This document shows positions 5,244 to 51,011 of a stretch of DNA of 56,217 nt, piece by piece. Position 1 is the stretch's first letter. The number at the start of each line of letters is the position of its first letter. The stretch is taken from the NCBI GenBank assembly GCA_001771185.1, contig METB01000001.1:252631-308847 (forward strand). Direction: 5' to 3'. The notes beneath the pieces were generated by a model. The model saw nothing but the letters and a program-made list of their open reading frames with translations, was not told the origin of the DNA and searched no databases. This DNA comes from a candidate division Kazan bacterium RIFCSPHIGHO2_01_FULL_44_14 (GTDB taxonomy: Bacteria; Patescibacteriota; Kazan-3B-28). A program made the position numbers and the translations under genes.

Positions 5244-6476
5244 TTACGATTTTTGTAGTAGAACCGCTGTTGTTTGAAGATCAGTTTTGTATTGTAAAGT
5301 CCTGGGGGTGGAATGTAGCCCTAACTGCCCAGCAAGACCAGACACTTCTTCCGGAGTAATTCCTTTTTGGAAAGTTTGCTTACCGGGGTGAGACCAATAG
5401 CCGTCGTTATGGGTCTGCCAATGTTTCTTCGCTACTTCCGACTCTATCGCTTTGAGAGAACGGGTTACAACCAGGAGTTTACCGGCTGGGTTGAGGTACT
5501 CGGCTGCTTGTTTAAGCACCTTCAACCTTTCTGCCATAGTGGGCAGAACATTCAATACGAATATGAGAGTTACTAAATCGTATTTGCTGTCTGGGAGCTT
5601 ACCCCAACCGAAAGGTATGTGAGGGTCAAACCCATCGGCAACTAAACCAGATTTGCGATAATGCTCTACATCTCTCCCGTAACCGCAACCATAGTCCAAA
5701 ATTGATTTGATGCCTTGTGTAGTCACTAATGTATCAGTTACCCAATGAGCAAATGGAGAAGCTATTTTGCGAGGGATTGCAGTTTTATAAGAAGCTACAC
5801 TCTTTTCTACAAAATTTAATACCTGGGCGGAATGATCAGTAAACCTATGCTCACCCTCCCTAACGGTATGGTCGTATTGAAAAGTTGTTTGCAGAATAAA
5901 TACGGGATCTACCAAGGTAAGGTCACATCGGAAACAAATCTCCTGATTGAGCCTATTTCGTTTTATAGTAAACCCCTTCCCGTGCCCAGCATCGCTATAA
6001 GCTCGGCTACTTATTAGTTCTTGGAACGAACCTCGATCCAACTCGGAATTAAAGTTACTAATGTTTGTACCCACAAGACCATCCTCAGGCAAGGGCGCCA
6101 GATTAAAGTCACCCATCAAAAAAGCTGGCTCGTTGTTCAGTCGCTTTAACTCTTGAAGCTGTTCTGCCCGTTTGGCGCAAGTGTAAGCATCAAGATAAAC
6201 ATTAAAAAGTGGTACCCCTTGAAATACAATTTTCTGTACATAGGGCAAATTCAGCTCAACCCTCCCATTGCTGCCAGAGTTCAACCATATTGCCAGATTG
6301 GTGTTGGAGACCAGTAGCGACATTCCTGGTATATGCAAAACTTCGTTGCTCGGTTGCTTGGATGGCTCTTGCACCAGGAGAACATCAGGATTGATACCGC
6401 CTAACCATTCCAGAAACTCGCTCTTGGCAACAGGATTGCCCATCCTCTTATTTAAATTGATTGAAACTACTCTCAT
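5244..6476 (-). CDS. Fusion of an EEP (DNase I/ExoIII-like) nuclease/phosphatase and a class I SAM methyltransferase
   Basis: EEP motifs SINLN, LVQEP, GDFN, RCD, TDH; MTase motifs ILDYGCGYGRD, GFDP, VLNVL...ER, TFQK. Confidence 0.85.
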   Translation of the reverse strand: MRVVSINLNKRMGNPVAKSEFLEWLGGINPDVLLVQEPSKQPSNEVLHIPGMSLLVSNTNLAIWLNSGSNGRVELNLPYVQKIVFQGVPLFNVYLDAYTCAKRAEQLQELKRLNNEPAFLMGDFNLAPLPEDGLVGTNISNFNSELDRGSFQELISSRAYSDAGHGKGFTIKRNRLNQEICFRCDLTLVDPVFILQTTFQYDHTVREGEHRFTDHSAQVLNFVEKSVASYKTAIPRKIASPFAHWVTDTLVTTQGIKSILDYGCGYGRDVEHYRKSGLVADGFDPHIPFGWGKLPDSKYDLVTLIFVLNVLPTMAERLKVLKQAAEYLNPAGKLLVVTRSLKAIESEVAKKHWQTHNDGYWSHPGKQTFQKGITPEEVSGLAGQLGLHSTPRTLQYKTDLQTTAVLLQKS

Positions 6477-16887: not shown

Positions 16888-17356
16888 CGGCATATAGGGA
16901 ACATTAATGGGACCCATCGAAACAATTGCGTTAGCCGGTTAGAAAATCTCTCGCTTAGTTCAGCATGTTTGAGTCCCGGCAATCCGGGACGAGTTTGCGT
17001 TACCCGCCCGCAACGCTTTGCGTAGCAATGCGGGCGAGGAAACCAGAAAGAGCGATTTTCTATTTCGGCTAGCAATTGGTGAGTGGGCTCGCTTTTGGGC
17101 GCCACCCGTTTGGCGACGCAAATGGGTGGTAATTAATTGGGCGCAATTTCGCGCCCATTATAAAACACCACTAGTTTGCCGCCCTTATTTCTGGTTCTGT
17201 GGAGACCAGGTGGGTCCCCGCTCCGCATTCCCCCAGGAAAGCGGAATTAGGGGTCCCATAAAATTGGGTGTTGAGCCAAATATTGGTGGCAAATTAATGG
17301 TGCTAATTTAATTTTAGCACATATAATTTGGTGTCAATTTGATGGTTTGGGGATAA

Positions 17357-44622: not shown

Positions 44623-45681
44623 CTAATTGGAAATTTGCTCAAACGATTGATTTTGATCGCCTTCGACCCGAGGCAAATTGTTATCATTCTTACCGGGTGT
44701 TTCCCCAATAAGCGGACTATTAATAATATTGGTATCCCAAATTACTTGGCCACCAATCAGAAGTTTTGAAAGTTGGATAGTGTCACCTTCTAAGACCCCA
44801 AAGACAGTCGCGTTAGTGCTACCCATATATGGAATCAAATTCACGGCACTACCGACTAAGAAATAACGGGTGCTACCTATCATCAGAGTTGGCTTGGCAG
44901 TGTAAGTGCCAATATTGCCGACTAACATAACACTGCCATCAGTGACGACCTTCGGAGTGGCTGGAGTAGTGTCCCCCGTTGCTGGAGTGGCTGACACGGC
45001 AGGAATTAATTTTTCCAAATCGTCACGCATGGCTAAAATACTTTGACGAACATCATCTTTGCCAATATTGCCATCGATAATGGTTTTCAAAACCCCGCGT
45101 TGAGCGTCAACAAATGATTTTAATTTATTTACCAAATCAGCGGAGGTAGTGGCGTCACCACTGCTATTCTGAAGGGCTGTAACAGCGCTTCTAGCGTTCT
45201 CAAGTGCCAATTGCGACTCTCTGACTACATCGCTTAGTTGTGCCTGGTCAGAAGAGCCCAGGGCCTTCAACCGATCATCGGCAATTGCTAACCGCAAAGT
45301 TGCCCGACGAGCGGGATCAGTAGTTAGTGCAATTTCAACATTTTCAAAGGCCTTGCGGACACCGAACAATGGTTGGCCGGGCTGGGCATCATTGGCAATT
45401 GCGCCGGTCGTAAAAGTAGCCACGAAGACGGTTGCTAGAAGTCCGACTGTGGCCGGCAGACCCAGCATGATCTTCTGGGGCCGGAAGATGTTGGCTAGTT
45501 TGTTAACTGGCATAACCAAATCAGCCGTTTCTACCTTGGTCTGCATGGCGTCAATCAGGTCCAACTGTCCGATTTGCTTAAATAACCGGTCACGAATTTT
45601 CTGCCGTTGAGACAACGACAAATGAGCGTCTTTACCTAAGACGCCAAGTTCTTGTACTAAATTGTCGTGAATGCGAGGCAT
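44623..45681 (-). CDS. DUF5667-domain membrane protein (putative anti-sigma), copy A
   Basis: TM, then AQPGQPLFGVRKAFENVEIALT...LRLAIADDRL. Confidence 0.75.
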   Translation of the reverse strand: MPRIHDNLVQELGVLGKDAHLSLSQRQKIRDRLFKQIGQLDLIDAMQTKVETADLVMPVNKLANIFRPQKIMLGLPATVGLLATVFVATFTTGAIANDAQPGQPLFGVRKAFENVEIALTTDPARRATLRLAIADDRLKALGSSDQAQLSDVVRESQLALENARSAVTALQNSSGDATTSADLVNKLKSFVDAQRGVLKTIIDGNIGKDDVRQSILAMRDDLEKLIPAVSATPATGDTTPATPKVVTDGSVMLVGNIGTYTAKPTLMIGSTRYFLVGSAVNLIPYMGSTNATVFGVLEGDTIQLSKLLIGGQVIWDTNIINSPLIGETPGKNDNNLPRVEGDQNQSFEQISN

Positions 45682-45890
45682 AGTTGTGAGTTACGAGTAT
45701 CGAGTCGCGAGTTATTAGTATTGAGTCGCGAGTATCGAGTTGTGAGGAGAGATGAGTCGCGAGTGTGAGAGAAGAAAAGAGTTATTAGTTATAAAAAATT
45801 CCGCAAATACTTTTAAGAAAATAGAGATGTTCCCCATTTTCCCAAAAGTTCTTGCGGAACCCTTAGAAAGCGAGTGACGAGTTACGAGTC
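45682..45890 (-). repeat. Heptad repeat 3' arms (ACTCGxx) between the four-helix-bundle gene and the DUF5667 start
   Basis: Plus-strand runs of gagt-nnn at 45682-45768 and 45870-45890. Confidence 0.85.
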
Positions 45891-45907
45891 GCTCGTTGCG
45901 AGAGTCG

Positions 45908-46294
45908 TTAATCGTTCACTGTAATCTGGTTTGAAATGTTGTTTTTTTGACTTTTAATGAGACCAGCCAACATCCGATTAATTTCTTCCGATTGCCGTAT
46001 AATATCTGTTACCTGTTCTGATGTGAGGTACTGGAGGTCGGATGCAATATGTGTTTGGGTCTCTAGCTCGGCTAAAGATCCCCTTGCAATTCTAATGAAT
46101 CGAATAAAATCTTTTGCCGATGAGCGACCACACCCTTCAGCGATATTGGAAGCTATTGAAACAGCACTGCGTCGAATTTGCGACTGAAGACCAAACCGTT
46201 CATCGATAGGAAAGTGCTGGGTATGCCTGTAAATCGACGTCGCCAGAATACGAGCTTTTTGCCAAACAGACAGTTGTGCGTATCCCCCATTCAT
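45908..46294 (-). CDS. Four-helix-bundle protein (23S rRNA IVP-like, TIGR02436-type)
   Basis: YAQLSVWQKA...FPIDERFGLQSQIRRSAVSIASNIAEG...FIRIARGSLAELETQ; start is ATG 46294 or GTG 46330 inside the repeat arm. Confidence 0.92.
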   Translation of the reverse strand: MNGGYAQLSVWQKARILATSIYRHTQHFPIDERFGLQSQIRRSAVSIASNIAEGCGRSSAKDFIRFIRIARGSLAELETQTHIASDLQYLTSEQVTDIIRQSEEINRMLAGLIKSQKNNISNQITVND

Positions 46295-46316
46295 GTAATT
46301 GCTCGTTACTCGCGAC

Positions 46317-46877
46317 TCACGACTCGTCACTTAACATGTCTCTTAACTTTGCCAGAGCCCGTACCGTGATAGCCCGCACATTTGCTTCTTTTTTCTTGAT
46401 GGCTTGCGCCACCCGAGCAATTGGCAGTTCTTCAACAAACCGTAATCGCAAGACCTTTTGATATTCTTCCGGTAACCGCTGTAAGGCGTTTTCCAGAACC
46501 GAGGCCTCGTGGTAGGGCTCATCCCCTTCAAGATCAGCAATTTCTGGCAGATTCTCGAAAGAAATTTCTCCCCGACGATTAATTCGGTAGTAATCGATGA
46601 CCGAATTGCGCGCGACAGTGTAAAGCCAAGTTGAAAACTTAGCATCCGCTTGCGGTTTGTATTGATGGATTTTCTGCCAGACCTTGAGGAAGACCTCCGA
46701 GGTAAGATCCTCGGCTACCGGGACACTTCTGACTTTGAGATGGACGAATCGGTAAACCTTGCCGGCCCAAATCTCGTAGAGTTCGCCGAAGGCCTGCTCA
46801 TCGCCCCCTTGGGAGCGTTGAATCAGGTCGGTTTCTCGCTGTTTGGCATAATCCGCTTTAAGCTGCAAAATGGCCAT
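46317..46877 (-). CDS. ECF RNA polymerase sigma factor, copy A
   Basis: AFGELYE, AEDLTSEVFLKVW, FSTWLYTVARNSVIDYYR, LQRLPEEYQKVLRLRF. Confidence 0.95.
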   Translation of the reverse strand: MAILQLKADYAKQRETDLIQRSQGGDEQAFGELYEIWAGKVYRFVHLKVRSVPVAEDLTSEVFLKVWQKIHQYKPQADAKFSTWLYTVARNSVIDYYRINRRGEISFENLPEIADLEGDEPYHEASVLENALQRLPEEYQKVLRLRFVEELPIARVAQAIKKKEANVRAITVRALAKLRDMLSDES

Positions 46878-47057: not shown

Positions 47058-47540
47058 TAGTGAGTTACGAGTATCGAGTCGCGAGTGGAGGAATGTCAGA
47101 GAGAGTCACGAGTATCGGGAAACTGCTCGCAATGACAAGATAAGGGGGAAACAAGGGAGTTGGTGAATAGTGAGTTACGAGTATCGAGTCGCGAGTGGAA
47201 GAATGTCGGAGAGAGTTACGAGTAGGTTTGCTTTCATCCTAGTAAGTCCATCGTCATTCCGGACTTACCTGCCCGTTCCGAAGCCACAGGCATAGGCGGG
47301 ACCCGGAATCCAGAAAGAAAAATAAAAGATTTTCTGTTTAGGTCTGGATTCCCGTCTTCCTGCCCGAATCGCTACGCCCGCCAGAAACGTTGTATCTACT
47401 ACGGGCTGGCGAATCGTTGCGGGCGGGCGCGGGAATGACAGGGGGGCGGGAATGACAGGAAAAGCGACCTAGACGGAAACAACCGACAAGAGTGCTTGTC
47501 GGTTGTTCAATACTCATTTCTCACTACTCAATACTTCCTC
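47058..47540. repeat. Composite repeat region (heptad arms, 57-bp direct repeat, nested GTCAT and GCCCG REPs)
   Basis: Direct repeat 47058-47114 / 47168-47224 (3 mismatches); gtcattccggac...ccggaatcc; ggattcccg...gggaatgac. Confidence 0.85.
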
Positions 47541-48509
47541 TTACATCAGATGCGGTGGCCAGTTTGGTTCGACTTCTGGCACGACTGGTTTGGACGAGTC
47601 CTTGGAAATCACCTGGTCGAAATAGTCCTGAATCGCCTGTCCCACCAAAGCAATTTGCTGTTTGATTTCGGCTACCTGATTAAGATTCTGTTGAACATCT
47701 TCGTCGGTTCCCAGCGAATCGTCCGGGACAGGCAACTTGGCATCTTCAGTGGCATCTATTTCATCTTCGGTCTCACCCAACTTTTTCAGAGTTTCCCGAC
47801 GAAGTTCATTCATTTCTTGAACTGATTCTTTCCGCCATTCCCGTAACCGAGCCCGAAGCGGAATTTGGTTCATGACACTCCCCTCAATCTCATTCATCCG
47901 CTCTTCGCGCTTATCCATCACCTCACCCAGATGTTCAATGATATTTTGAAAAACCTCTTTTTGAGCGTCGGTCGTAGCACCAGCCAATTTCTCTTCAAAT
48001 TTGGTCTGGACGGTGTTAACCCGTTCGATGCTTTGGGCTACTCGCTCAACTGCATTTTGTTTGCGTTGTTCGAATCTGGCCTTCATTTCATCTGACCATT
48101 GGCTTGGGTCAATCGTCTGCATGGCTTTGAGTTCAGCCAATCGTTCCTCACTAAACTTAGCCAATAAACCGGCCTTGGATTCTGGGGTCCGAGTAATTTT
48201 TTCCTGAATTCGCTCCACCCATTGATCAATGGGGTAAAGCGTGTCACCCGGCTTGGCTGTATTAGCCCAAGCGGCAGTTCCACCACCTAGGGCAATGATG
48301 GTGGCAATAATTAATGGGATAAGTGGCATAGCAAATCTCCTTTGGTTAAATGTATTACTTGCCTGACGAGTACCAGTCCGCTCTGGAAGCATATTTATTA
48401 CACTCATCAGGTTATTTTTGATTTCCGACTTATCTGAAGAGGATAACTGAACCCGACTCCCTGCTTGGCGGATTAGTTCTTCTAGCTGTTTGTCGGTGTG
48501 GTTAGACAT
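47541..48509 (-). CDS. DUF5667-domain membrane protein (putative anti-sigma), copy B
   Basis: TM, then AKPGDTLYPIDQWVERIQ...AKFSEERLAEL. Confidence 0.8.
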   Translation of the reverse strand: MSNHTDKQLEELIRQAGSRVQLSSSDKSEIKNNLMSVINMLPERTGTRQASNTFNQRRFAMPLIPLIIATIIALGGGTAAWANTAKPGDTLYPIDQWVERIQEKITRTPESKAGLLAKFSEERLAELKAMQTIDPSQWSDEMKARFEQRKQNAVERVAQSIERVNTVQTKFEEKLAGATTDAQKEVFQNIIEHLGEVMDKREERMNEIEGSVMNQIPLRARLREWRKESVQEMNELRRETLKKLGETEDEIDATEDAKLPVPDDSLGTDEDVQQNLNQVAEIKQQIALVGQAIQDYFDQVISKDSSKPVVPEVEPNWPPHLM

Positions 48510-48842: not shown

Positions 48843-49379
48843 TTAATTTTTAATTTGTAATTGCTGTTTTAGCTTATCTAATCCCCTTTTAACGATAACT
48901 CGAAGGTGATTTTCGGTTTTGCCGGTAATTTGAGCGATTTCAGAATAATCTAGTTCTTCGACAAATTTCAGCTTGAGAACGGTCTGATAAAGTTCGGGGA
49001 GTTGATCGATATTATCGATTACTCGAGTCACCTCATCATTCGTTTCCACCTCTGCCTCTACATCCGTGCCACCAGAGCGATTTATTACAGCGTCTAAGGA
49101 GACGGTCGGGCGATGGCGCCGGTAGTGGTCAATCAGGTTATATCTGGCAATCGCAAATATCCAGGTCTTGAATGGTCGATTGGGGTCATACCGATGCAAA
49201 CTTTGCCAGGCCTCCAACCAGACCTGACTTAAAATATCCTTAGCCGAGTCGTTATCGCGTAACCGAAAGGCCAAAAACCGATAGATGCTATCTGATAATT
49301 CATCAAATAATTGACCGAATGCACCGCTATCGCCTTCTTTGGCCGCCAAAGCTAATTGATTAATTTCTTGATTTGTCAT
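48843..49379 (-). CDS. ECF RNA polymerase sigma factor, copy B
   Basis: AFGQLFD, FKTWIFAIARYNLIDHYR, LPELYQTVLKLKF; the likely start is ATG 49379 (the track extension reads through repeats). Confidence 0.93.
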   Translation of the reverse strand: MTNQEINQLALAAKEGDSGAFGQLFDELSDSIYRFLAFRLRDNDSAKDILSQVWLEAWQSLHRYDPNRPFKTWIFAIARYNLIDHYRRHRPTVSLDAVINRSGGTDVEAEVETNDEVTRVIDNIDQLPELYQTVLKLKFVEELDYSEIAQITGKTENHLRVIVKRGLDKLKQQLQIKN

Positions 49380-49399
49380 CCCGTTAAAAATAAGAGTTT

Positions 49400-49637
49400 T
49401 GATGAGTAACGAGTATTGAGTTGCGAGTAGCGAGTGTATTGAGTCGAAGGACCATCTGTCATCCTGGTAATTCTGCCGTACGGCAGAAGCATCCAGAATC
49501 TTATATACGATTCTGGGCACCTGCCCGAAGATGCTACATCATTGCAGGCGGGAGCCAGAATGACGACGGATATGGTGGGTTAAGCCAGAACACGACTCCG
49601 TTTTAATTGGTTAGATTGGTGAGATTGAATAGATTGG
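49400..49637. repeat. Composite repeat region between mnmA and sigma B
   Basis: Heptad arm at 49400-49443; GTCAT REP at ~49460-49502, a near-identical inverted copy of ~15357-15399; gattggtt repeats. Confidence 0.8.
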
Positions 49638-51011
49638 TTAGATTATCTTTTTTATTATTCCCCCTCCGAGACAGACAGAACCATCATACAGTACCAGGGA
49701 TTGGCCTGGAGTCAAGGCACGAACTGGAGCATCGAAGATGAAGGAGTAGCGAGTCGCGAGTAACGAGTTGTGAGTGACGAGTTGCGAGTGATGAGTTGCG
49801 AGTGATGAGTTGCGAGAGGGAGATTGTTTCGGTGTGTTTTTTTGTCTGGATCCCGGCTCGGAGGCCGGAATGACGATAGTTTCACCGTTCGCAACTCGCG
49901 ACTCGTTACTCGCGACTTCTTCTATTACCAGCTGACCCGAATAAACTTCGGGGCCATAACGGGGCTTGGCGGTAAGTAAGTAACGAGTTACGAGTGACGA
50001 GTGACGAGTTGAATGCTTTTCACCCGCAACTCGCGACTCGCGACTCGCGACCTTCTCTATTAGGTGTAGGTTCTTCAAAACCACCCCTTGACCGTAAGTA
50101 GCAGAATCCGGACCGACCACGACCAGATTTTTCTTAATATCAGTCGATATCACATAAAGCGGGTCGGTTTGCCCTGATAAACCAGCCACCCGCCTCTGGC
50201 CGATAGTATAAAACCAGGCCCCTTCATGTTCACCAACCACTTTACCCTCTAGGTTGACAATTTTGCCTTTTTTCTGTGTAATAACGGTTTTTAAGAACTT
50301 TTTAACATCAATTGGTCCGATAAAACAAATTCCCTGACTGTCTTTTTTGGTGGCAGTCGGTAATTTAAACTGTTTAGCCAACGCCCTAACCCGCTTTTTT
50401 GGGTATTGGCCAATCGGGAATAGGGTTTTAGACAACTGGGCTTGGGTCAAATTGTAAAGAAAATAGGTCTGGTCTTTGATGGGGTCTGCTCCTTTTAGGA
50501 GCAAATGACGAGTGACGAGTGACGAGTGACGAGTAAGGGAAGAGTTAGTTTTTCCACTCGCGACTCGCGACTCATGACTCGCAACTCGTTGCGCATAATG
50601 TCCGGTGGCAATAAAGTCGGCTCCTAGAGCCATGGCTCGTTTTAAAAACAGACCAAATTTAATTTCTTTGTTGCACATCACATCTGGATTGGGCGTTCGA
50701 CCGGCTTTGTATTCAGCAAAAAAGTAATCCAGTACCTGCTTTTTGTATTCCTTTTCGAAATTAAAGGTGTAATAAGGGATATCAAGTTGCTGACAAACCG
50801 CTCGCATATCGGCAAAGTCCTGTTCGACAGAGCAATATTCTGTCCTAGTGTAGATAAGATCGCTCCAGCCCGCAGAGCTACGCTCAGCGTTGCTGGCGGG
50901 CCAGTTCTTCATAAAGACCCCAACCACTTTAAAACCCTGCTGTTTCAGCAGAGCGGCAGCCACAGAGGAGTCGACTCCCCCACTCATAGCGACAAAGACA
51001 GTTGGCGTCAT
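49638..51011 (-). CDS. mnmA: tRNA 2-thiouridylase MnmA carrying four in-frame repeat-derived insertions
   Basis: SGGVDS, PNPDVMCN, ATGHYA, KDQTYFL, KKDSQGICF, FYTIGQR and TPGQ are all intact. Confidence 0.96.
   Translation of the reverse strand: MTPTVFVAMSGGVDSSVAAALLKQQGFKVVGVFMKNWPASNAERSSAGWSDLIYTRTEYCSVEQDFADMRAVCQQLDIPYYTFNFEKEYKKQVLDYFFAEYKAGRTPNPDVMCNKEIKFGLFLKRAMALGADFIATGHYAQRVASHESRVASGKTNSSLTRHSSLVTRHLLLKGADPIKDQTYFLYNLTQAQLSKTLFPIGQYPKKRVRALAKQFKLPTATKKDSQGICFIGPIDVKKFLKTVITQKKGKIVNLEGKVVGEHEGAWFYTIGQRRVAGLSGQTDPLYVISTDIKKNLVVVGPDSATYGQGVVLKNLHLIEKVASRESRVAGEKHSTRHSSLVTRYLLTAKPRYGPEVYSGQLVIEEVASNESRVANGETIVIPASEPGSRQKNTPKQSPSRNSSLATHHSQLVTHNSLLATRYSFIFDAPVRALTPGQSLVLYDGSVCLGGGIIKKII

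Follow-up and report, generated by a model that had tools for sequence, protein, structure and literature searches.

The window analyzed here is a stretch of 56,217 nucleotides (contig METB01000001.1, positions 252,631 to 308,847 of the forward strand) from the candidate division Kazan bacterium RIFCSPHIGHO2_01_FULL_44_14, a member of the Candidate Phyla Radiation (CPR) whose genome is a single contig of 699,981 bp with 45.6% G+C. An open reading frame (ORF) at 49638-51011 on the minus strand encodes an intact MnmA of 457 amino acids (aa), the tRNA 2-thiouridine(34) synthase, and a search of the genome returned this one match, making it the sole mnmA. The protein is about 100 aa longer than its insert-free orthologues. 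A first-pass annotation, made from the letters and their translations, had described an intact mnmA carrying four in-frame repeat inserts, and all of these elements are present where it had placed them. In the order of the coding strand (positions are those of the window) they are:

50869-50900, minus strand: insert D, located in the loop that follows the KNW motif; a 32-bp repetitive extragenic palindrome (REP) of a second family, encoding PASNAERSSAG
50506-50588, minus strand: insert A, a heptamer-armed hairpin (mRNA 5' arm 50556-50588, 3' arm 50506-50534)
49979-50051, minus strand: insert B, a heptamer-armed hairpin (mRNA 5' arm 50025-50051, 3' arm 49979-50009)
49744-49917, minus strand: insert C, a heptamer-armed hairpin (mRNA 5' arm 49889-49917, 3' arm 49744-49816)
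49846-49876, minus strand: within the apex of hairpin C, a nested REP with a CGTC tag, which reads CGTCATTCCGGCCTCCGAGCCGGGATCCAG in sense and encodes VIPASEPGSRQ

The enzyme itself appears to have been spared. Its sequence matches three Pfam families, all above their cut-offs (PF03054, 6.7e-76; PF20259, 5.5e-22; PF20258, 5.5e-11), and an N-terminal PP-loop ATP-pyrophosphatase domain with an SGGxDS motif is followed by the central and C-terminal barrel domains. Throughout an alignment of 115 sequences the PP-loop S10-S16 (motif SGGVDSS, residues 10-16) is invariant, as are D110, C113 and C229, which are the counterparts of D99, C102 and C199 of Escherichia coli MnmA; the roles of the catalytic residues Asp99, Cys102 and Cys199 of that enzyme have been described (PMC11784392). 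The view that both the reading frame and the catalytic motifs are preserved is thereby borne out. Solved MnmA structures are matched at E ~1e-86, and the gaps in those alignments coincide exactly with the positions of the inserts.

An AlphaFold2 model built from the same 115 sequences (mean predicted local distance difference test score, pLDDT, 84.5; predicted TM-score, pTM, 0.84) has a core that Foldseek superimposes on the MnmA crystal structures 2hma, 2det and 2deu, tRNA complexes among them, with target-normalized TM-scores of 0.88-0.89. Inserts A, B and C are all placed at the tips of β-hairpins, between paired strands, where the peptides encoded by the arms in part prolong the flanking strands. 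Insert A adds some 20 aa (RVASHESRVASGKTNSSLTRHSSLVTRH) at the tip of the β-hairpin E140-147/E166-173, insert B some 18 aa at the tip of E306-317/E341-349, and insert C some 54 aa between strands E357-367 and E418-431. Confidence is low at the centers of the inserts, with pLDDT values below 50 at residues 375-414 (site C) and of 53-65 at the other sites. The earlier suggestion that the inserts are tolerated as surface loops is supported by these hairpin-tip positions, low pLDDT values and the retained MnmA core fold.

Inserts A, B and C share a single design, reading on the coding strand 5'-(GAGTCGC)n, loop, (ACTCGTC)n-3'. Their arms were identified with Tandem Repeats Finder as period-7 arrays (49744-49816 and 49889-49917; 49979-50009 and 50025-50051; 50506-50534 and 50556-50588), which an inverted-repeat search joins into inverted pairs, and the intervening loops of 16-90 nt are gene-free. 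The peptides that they specify include VASHESR, HSSLVTR and NSSLATHHSQLVTHNSLLATR, and those quoted in the first-pass annotation are the actual translation. The 3' arm of insert C has grown to 10 units and shows a super-period of 14 nt (4.8 copies, 90% matches). Over a stretch of 38 nt that takes in 12 nt of flank, the 5' half of insert C matches that of insert B at 87% identity (family D2). An independent metagenome contig (L001) harbors the same gene with all four inserts and 3 base differences, so that an assembly artefact is unlikely.

It had been argued that the arms pair at six of seven positions per heptamer in the mRNA, by way of a G.U wobble, and that this favors the sense strand. For hairpins A and B the argument holds, since their sense folds consist of 6-bp helices with single mismatches between them and reach -39.9 kcal/mol for A (z-score -5.3 against shuffles; antisense -39.0) and -41.7 kcal/mol for B (z-score -5.8; antisense -30.9). 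For hairpin C it does not, the antisense fold (-78.1) being stronger than the sense fold (-64.5). A general folding preference for the transcribed strand was therefore rejected, because insert C and most of the intergenic hairpins fold better on the other strand, and the wobble-based case for a structure acting at the mRNA level is not general either.

The two REPs belong to separate families. The palindrome nested in the largest hairpin loop proved to be a dispersed repeat, as had been supposed, with six copies in the genome (the five others at up to 5 mismatches). Its sense architecture is CGTC-ATTCCGGC-CTCCGA-GCCGGGAT-CCA. The published 'CGTC REPs' are defined by a terminal CGTC tag, an 8-9-bp stem starting with AT, a loop of 4-5 nt and a short CCA-like tail (PMC3733652); the nested REP displays the terminal tag, an 8-bp stem starting with AT and the CCA tail, but its loop, both in mnmA and in the other genomic copies, is 6 nt long and falls outside the published range. 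The site-D REP, which folds at -24.7 kcal/mol, belongs to a family without the CGTC tag that has nine genomic copies (eight others); one of these, at 17003-17034 on the minus strand, confirms the kinship that had been noticed with an intergenic hairpin at that place.

Heptamer arrays are a property of the whole genome. Seven is its commonest tandem period, accounting for 185 of 468 arrays, with a median array length of 27 nt. Only 28 of these 185 arrays lie inside called genes and 157 lie outside, though 85% of the genome is coding, and from this intergenic bias it follows that the intragenic copies are a tolerated minority. Arrays of at least three units with the GAGT/ACTC core number 27 in the genome, against none in a shuffle, and 13 of the 27 are clustered in the window at 45.7-50.6 kb. 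Single heptamer arrays (about 30 nt, 10-14 aa) also occur in frame within other essential genes, whose ORFs have the following genome positions:

210462-212438: ArgRS
412636-413718: TsaD
413729-415903: ValRS
445402-447864: LeuRS (two arrays)
517174-519084: LepA
650799-653531: SecA (two arrays, one of which reads RVASNESRVVSE)

Beyond this genome, (ACTCGTC)3 with at most one mismatch was found, among 301 genomes of the phylum, only in the genome itself, in one of the same family and in one that is unrelated. The opposite arm, (GTCGCGA)3, is present on more than 120 metagenome contigs (loci L152-L271), nearly all of them with 55-72% G+C. A complementary ACTC-type array follows within 300 nt downstream in 29 of 128 cases and never upstream (0 cases), often in the G.T-wobble form (ACTCGTG)n; the hairpin design with its fixed polarity is thus not restricted to the CPR.

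A comparison of orthologues reveals what the gene looks like without its inserts. The closest public MnmA proteins are 345-499 aa long, and the neighborhood of a MerR gene, mnmA, a sigma factor gene and a DUF5667 gene is kept at several of their loci, which indicates that the genes compared are true orthologues. The four sites are:

Site D, after the KNW motif: 8-9 aa when empty, 14 residues more in the window
Site A, after GHYA: 10-12 aa when empty, 20 residues more in the window
Site B, after NLHLI: 11-16 aa when empty, 18 residues more in the window
Site C, before FIFD: 24 aa when empty, 54 residues more in the window

The segments are therefore not conserved, non-repetitive loops of the family, given that orthologues with the same synteny either lack inserts or have unrelated repeats in these four loops. 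In most members of the same family and of the neighboring family, sites A and B are filled, but with unrelated sequences. Alternative heptamer 'flavors' are found there (AGTATCT/AGATRCT in L005, CAAATKC in L088), as are hairpins armed with octamers, CAGGTNAG/CTNACCCG, which encode 8-aa peptide repeats at site B of L089 and site A of L090, and CGTC-type REPs and REP clusters. The mnmA of L088, a genome of the same genus, has no hairpin of the GAGT flavor.

An insert occupies site C in the window, L087, L004, L005 and P0006 alone. The junctions of the insert are identical in the four of these for which DNA is available (the window, L087, L004 and L005), and a conserved Trp has been lost in all five proteins. 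Three orthologues (the window, L087 and L004) have the CGTC-type REP at the tip of hairpin C, and L087 has it at the apex of hairpin A as well. A further palindrome lies inside that REP in L087, so that nesting reaches up to three levels among the orthologues.

These observations are best explained, with a probability of roughly 0.8, by the colonization of mnmA: hairpin repeats native to this genome would have entered the gene as DNA and would persist in it as translated surface loops. The elements inserted would have been three hairpins with stems of 3-10 tandem heptamers, always of the polarity 5'-(GAGTnnn)n-loop-(nnnACTC)n-3', then a CGTC-tagged REP that entered the apex of one of them, and an unrelated 32-bp REP at the fourth site. 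Each would have landed between two β-strands or in a surface loop, and only in-frame, stop-free insertions would have survived, to be transcribed and translated along with the gene. The resulting protrusions, rich in Arg and Ser and of poor order, would leave intact the PP-loop, the catalytic Asp-Cys-Cys triad and the fold with its three domains. The arms meanwhile evolve as nucleic acid rather than as protein, with silent positions kept between lineages, arrays expanded by slippage and copies within the gene homogenizing each other. We infer that a hairpin-directed mobile process lies behind the insertions, that the protein is active and that the peptides have no function of their own; the word 'mobile' reflects the pattern, read from sequence comparison, of filled and empty sites and of differing repeat flavors at one and the same site. 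One enzyme with four loops, for which filled, empty and differently filled alleles exist across an order, amounts to a natural experiment on tolerance and repeat turnover.

Several observations weigh against colonization. Neither a transposase nor a target-site duplication nor any identical copy of recent date was found. Insert C is missing from L089, which is closer to two of the four sharers, so that its presence in four orthologues fits cleanly with neither a single ancestral insertion nor independent ones; the core-protein tree is a polytomy for the lineages that bear on this history. The conservation of the arms at silent sites, described next, could reflect a function of the hairpins for the host that goes beyond tolerance.

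Between the window and the orthologues that share its inserts, arm identity is 0.75 over all positions and 0.83 at the third positions of codons, whereas the third positions of the mnmA core are only 0.47-0.51 identical and its fourfold-degenerate sites, at 0.33-0.44, are saturated. Selection at the protein level is accordingly no explanation for the similarity of the arms. Within a coding sequence, such silent-site conservation is a clean signal of action on the nucleic acid, and nucleotide-level constraint, homogenization or recent spread from conserved sources remain as its candidate causes.

The first of these possibilities leads to the alternative that has survived best, namely that the host keeps the hairpins as functional mRNA or DNA structures (RNase III or processing sites that set the mRNA level, pause sites at domain junctions, or binding sites for a four-helix-bundle protein), with the peptides as a by-product. 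The silent-site identity of 0.83 against 0.33-0.51 speaks for it, as do the very stable sense folds with their regular design of 6-bp helices and mismatches, the presence of an RNase III gene in the genome, the polarity that is fixed even on metagenome contigs (29 complementary arms downstream and none upstream), and the fact that RNase III cleaves stems built in this way in the 23S rRNA intervening sequence of Coxiella (PMC4990558). However, the relative of the same genus and many other orthologues have entirely different inserts at these sites or none, which means that no particular hairpin is required for mnmA, and flavors turn over at a single site. The advantage of one strand is inconsistent, with hairpin C and most of the intergenic hairpins favoring the non-coding strand, and the arrays are strongly depleted from genes, as would be expected of a burden. 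A host function of this kind is accordingly considered improbable.

Far less can be said for removal of the inserts from the mRNA, or for their being skipped, whether by splicing, by RNase III excision with re-ligation or by ribosomal bypass, any of which would yield a mature protein without them. The hairpins do resemble the intervening-sequence stems that are excised from rRNA, and they are very stable. Yet when the inserts at 31 occupied sites in 20 orthologues (1370 codons in total) are read in frame, not a single stop appears, whereas the two remaining sense frames of the same inserts hold 51 and 82 stops and the antisense frames 56-77. A segment that is spliced out or bypassed would have no need of an open frame, and removal at the RNA level, which the first-pass annotation had offered alongside tolerance, is thus very unlikely. 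Every insert length preserves the reading frame; an interrupted mnmA was found in none of 34 relatives; and at site A of L005 the sole heptamer unit that would place a TAG in frame has been specifically altered, reading CTGTATG rather than CTAGATG. The excision of bacterial intervening sequences, moreover, leaves unligated fragments (PMC4990558) and would destroy an mRNA, and the inserts have no pair of take-off and landing codons and no stop codon of the kind involved in known bypassing. Judged by codon content and by the structural model, the inserts appear to be translated as poorly ordered surface loops, not removed.

A slippage-based on/off switch (a 'contingency locus'), in which the gain or loss of a 7- or 14-nt unit would shift the frame and render MnmA phase-variable, meets with equally little credence. 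Units of these lengths are not multiples of 3, one array is perfect over 4.1 units while the 14-nt array runs to 4.8 copies with 90% matches, and unit numbers vary between orthologues; but every orthologue was found in frame, the contig of the near-identical strain (L001) has identical unit numbers, the arrays are short and imperfect in comparison with known contingency repeats, and mnmA is single-copy. Selection of the insert peptides for a function in the protein, for example as basic arms that bind tRNA or a partner in sulfur relay, would suit their richness in Arg, Ser and His and their extension of the β-hairpins of an RNA-binding enzyme, but is scarcely credible given that conservation is at the nucleotide level (silent sites included) rather than in the amino acids, that completely different peptides occupy the same loops in relatives, and that model confidence in the inserts is low.

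Colonization of this kind by palindromic repeats has well-known precedents. In-frame REPs with GTAG or CGTC tags have been described in many bacteria, including RPE-4 and RPE-6 of Rickettsia, and intragenic REP clusters can encode 43-82 aa (Di Nocera et al. 2013, PMC3733652), so the precedent invoked at the outset, that Rickettsia palindromic elements (RPEs; Ogata et al. 2000/2002; Claverie & Ogata 2003) insert in frame, is supported. Like the RPEs, the elements of the window are short dispersed palindromes that lie in frame in unrelated and often essential genes and are tolerated at the surface; in-frame palindromes in several unrelated genes, at surface positions, are what was found here. 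The likeness is one of behavior, and implies no membership of the Rickettsia sequence families RPE-1 to RPE-10, as the host is a CPR bacterium. Three of the four mnmA inserts, unlike RPEs and other REPs, have tandem-heptamer stems of about 20-70 nt in place of unique 8-9-bp stems. The present case differs further in its CPR host, in the occupation of four sites in one gene and in the nesting, up to three levels deep in orthologues. In-frame palindromic repeats are therefore a known phenomenon, and what is new here is the tandem-heptamer-armed hairpin as their carrier; no description of such hairpins as protein-coding inserts was found in the literature searched, and a literature search on the heptamer strings returned nothing relevant. 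The occurrence of selfish palindromes in essential proteins is thus extended from REPs of the Rickettsia type to tandem-heptamer-armed hairpins and to the reduced genomes of the CPR, in which inserts of this kind make proteins longer and can lead annotation and structure prediction astray.

Heptanucleotide repeats form a second point of comparison. The over-representation of heptamers, with an occasional inverted arrangement, has been reported for GGGAATC-type repeats in Xanthomonas and Nostoc (PMC4692102) and for TAACTGA repeats in Beggiatoaceae (PMC4679880). The arrays of the present genome resemble these and the cyanobacterial short tandemly repeated repetitive (STRR) sequences in that 7-nt units are over-represented, mostly intergenic, usually present in about four units and of many flavors. 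The published repeats are intergenic and direct, in contrast to the hairpin pairs of fixed polarity seen here, some of which are read in frame as 7-aa peptide repeats.

Small dispersed repeats within heptameric repeats were reportedly described in Nostoc by Elhai et al. in 2008.

A third comparison is with the intervening sequences of 23S rRNA in Coxiella and Leptospira. In Coxiella, such a sequence carries an S23p-family gene, and its 28-bp stem contains tandem heptamers where RNase III acts (Warrier et al. 2016, PMC4990558); the long stem of terminal inverted repeats with tandem heptamers is the feature that the mnmA hairpins have in common with it. They differ in being gene-less and in residing in a protein gene rather than in helix 25 or 45 of the rRNA, and, to judge from their open frames, they appear to be translated rather than excised. 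An S23p (PF05635) gene within the loop is accordingly absent from the mnmA hairpins, but it is present in a sibling element at 45871-46331, one of five such cassettes in this genome:

Window 45871-46331, minus strand: the sibling element with a 23S_rRNA_IVP gene at 45908-46330 (PF05635, 9.2e-41)
Genome 370271-370710: PF05635 cassette
Genome 585678-586180: PF05635 cassette
Genome 663056-663545: PF05635 cassette
Genome 668087-668571: PF05635 cassette

Without exception, the five genes of the PF05635 family (23S_rRNA_IVP, four-helix-bundle) in this genome are enclosed by complementary arms of tandem 7- or 9-mers, each gene occupying the hairpin loop. The arms are complementary at 19-21 of 24 positions, their flavor differs at each of the five genes, and each flavor is also abundant in the genome as gene-less arrays; by way of background, flanks complementary at 19/24 or better occur at only 13 of the 644 other genes. 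The sibling element, 3.3 kb from mnmA, has arms of the GAGT/ACTC flavor at 45871-45892 and 46308-46328 (19/24 complementary). Among relatives, 18 of 23 PF05635 genes have arms with a complementarity of at least 18/24, against mostly 14-17 (maximum 19) for controls. The flavor of the arms tracks the protein tree with the minimum number of changes, a value reached in none of 200 shuffles, and descent explains part of this match because at least one cassette pair is syntenic.

On this basis the mnmA hairpins may tentatively be viewed as gene-less copies of a cassette of the intervening-sequence type. A family known to lodge in 23S rRNA would then also colonize protein genes, where only in-frame, stop-free copies survive; an active process directed at hairpins, in which a cognate four-helix-bundle protein may take part, would maintain or rewrite the arms as nucleotide sequence, and the apices would serve as entry points for palindromes. 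We would give this proposal distinctly less than even odds. If true, it would join heptamer tandem repeats, S23p proteins and rRNA intervening sequences, and the co-occurrence with S23p cassettes in any case offers a concrete, testable clue to where heptamer repeats and rRNA intervening sequences come from. An alternative reading is that hairpin loops are preferred landing sites for small mobile genes and REPs; it is prompted by a 95-aa GIY-YIG (Ssn-like) gene at genome positions 204077-204626, which lies between complementary heptamer arrays (GAATTTA/TAAATTC, 22/24), and by ordinary genes such as rpsH, which are occasionally flanked by complementary arrays.

Two further ideas about these cassettes were discarded. 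The (GTCGCGA)3 arrays are not usually located beside a four-helix-bundle gene, as just 1 of 120 metagenome contigs has a PF05635 neighbor and most copies are gene-less. Horizontal transfer of a cassette, considered on account of near-identical proteins at L140 and L151 in two GTDB families, was dismissed because the flanks are about 78% identical and represent a syntenic locus. A scan of 1.5-kb flanks revealed no Rfam rRNA match near four of the five cassettes; the fifth, at genome position 663153, lay outside the scan.

The nested REP also resembles the NTS of Neisseria, one of the NTS/SRM hairpin repeats that go with the Ssn single-strand nucleases (Chenal et al. 2025, PMC11893778). The two share the initial letters CGTCATTCC and have similar tails, ...GGGAATCYRG in NTS and ...GGGATCCAG here. 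The published SRM pattern, HGTCWYN(0-2)YYVSBRHN(0-5)WNVSBRGN(0-2)RNCYNB, nevertheless has no match in mnmA, the nested REP included. Across the genome the pattern is barely enriched (7 matches against 1-4 in shuffles), and none of its matches comes within 300 nt of a small GIY-YIG gene, of which the genome encodes 13. Two of the nine copies of the site-D REP, at genome positions 331175 and 430305, lie 21 and 41 nt from small GIY-YIG genes, which suggests that this family may be the cognate motif for a subset of Ssn-type nucleases.

Several repeat arrays lie close to mnmA in the window:

49606-49644, strand not assigned: a tandem 9-mer array (ATTGGTTAG) that overlaps the mnmA stop codon
45688-45746, strand not assigned: an intergenic heptamer array of the GAGT flavor, in a local cluster with those at 47062-47089, 47172-47199 and 49404-49438

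The flavor of the 9-mer array recurs in the arms that enclose another four-helix-bundle gene, the one at genome position 585760. The array at 49404-49438 sits in an N-terminal extension of the longest sigma-factor ORF (peptide ...LLATQYSLLIKT...); it probably lies in the 5' leader and is not coding, because the gene call on the independent contig begins downstream (178 aa). That sigma-factor region belongs to one of two tandem pairs, each an ECF-type (extracytoplasmic function) sigma factor gene and then a DUF5667 gene: 48843-49520 with 47541-48509, and 46317-46877 with 44623-45681. The sibling cassette lies between the two genes of the second pair; the stop codon of the sigma factor gene falls within its 5' arm, and the annotated GTG start of its own gene reads the arm as MTSRESRVTS. 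In L005, an (ACTCGCG/ACTCGTC) array at 5730-5757 lies within the DUF5667 gene downstream of mnmA and is a possible further in-frame copy. The octamer flavor CAGGTNAG/CTNACCCG seen in mnmA orthologues also borders a PF05635 gene in L128, which belongs to another genome of the order.

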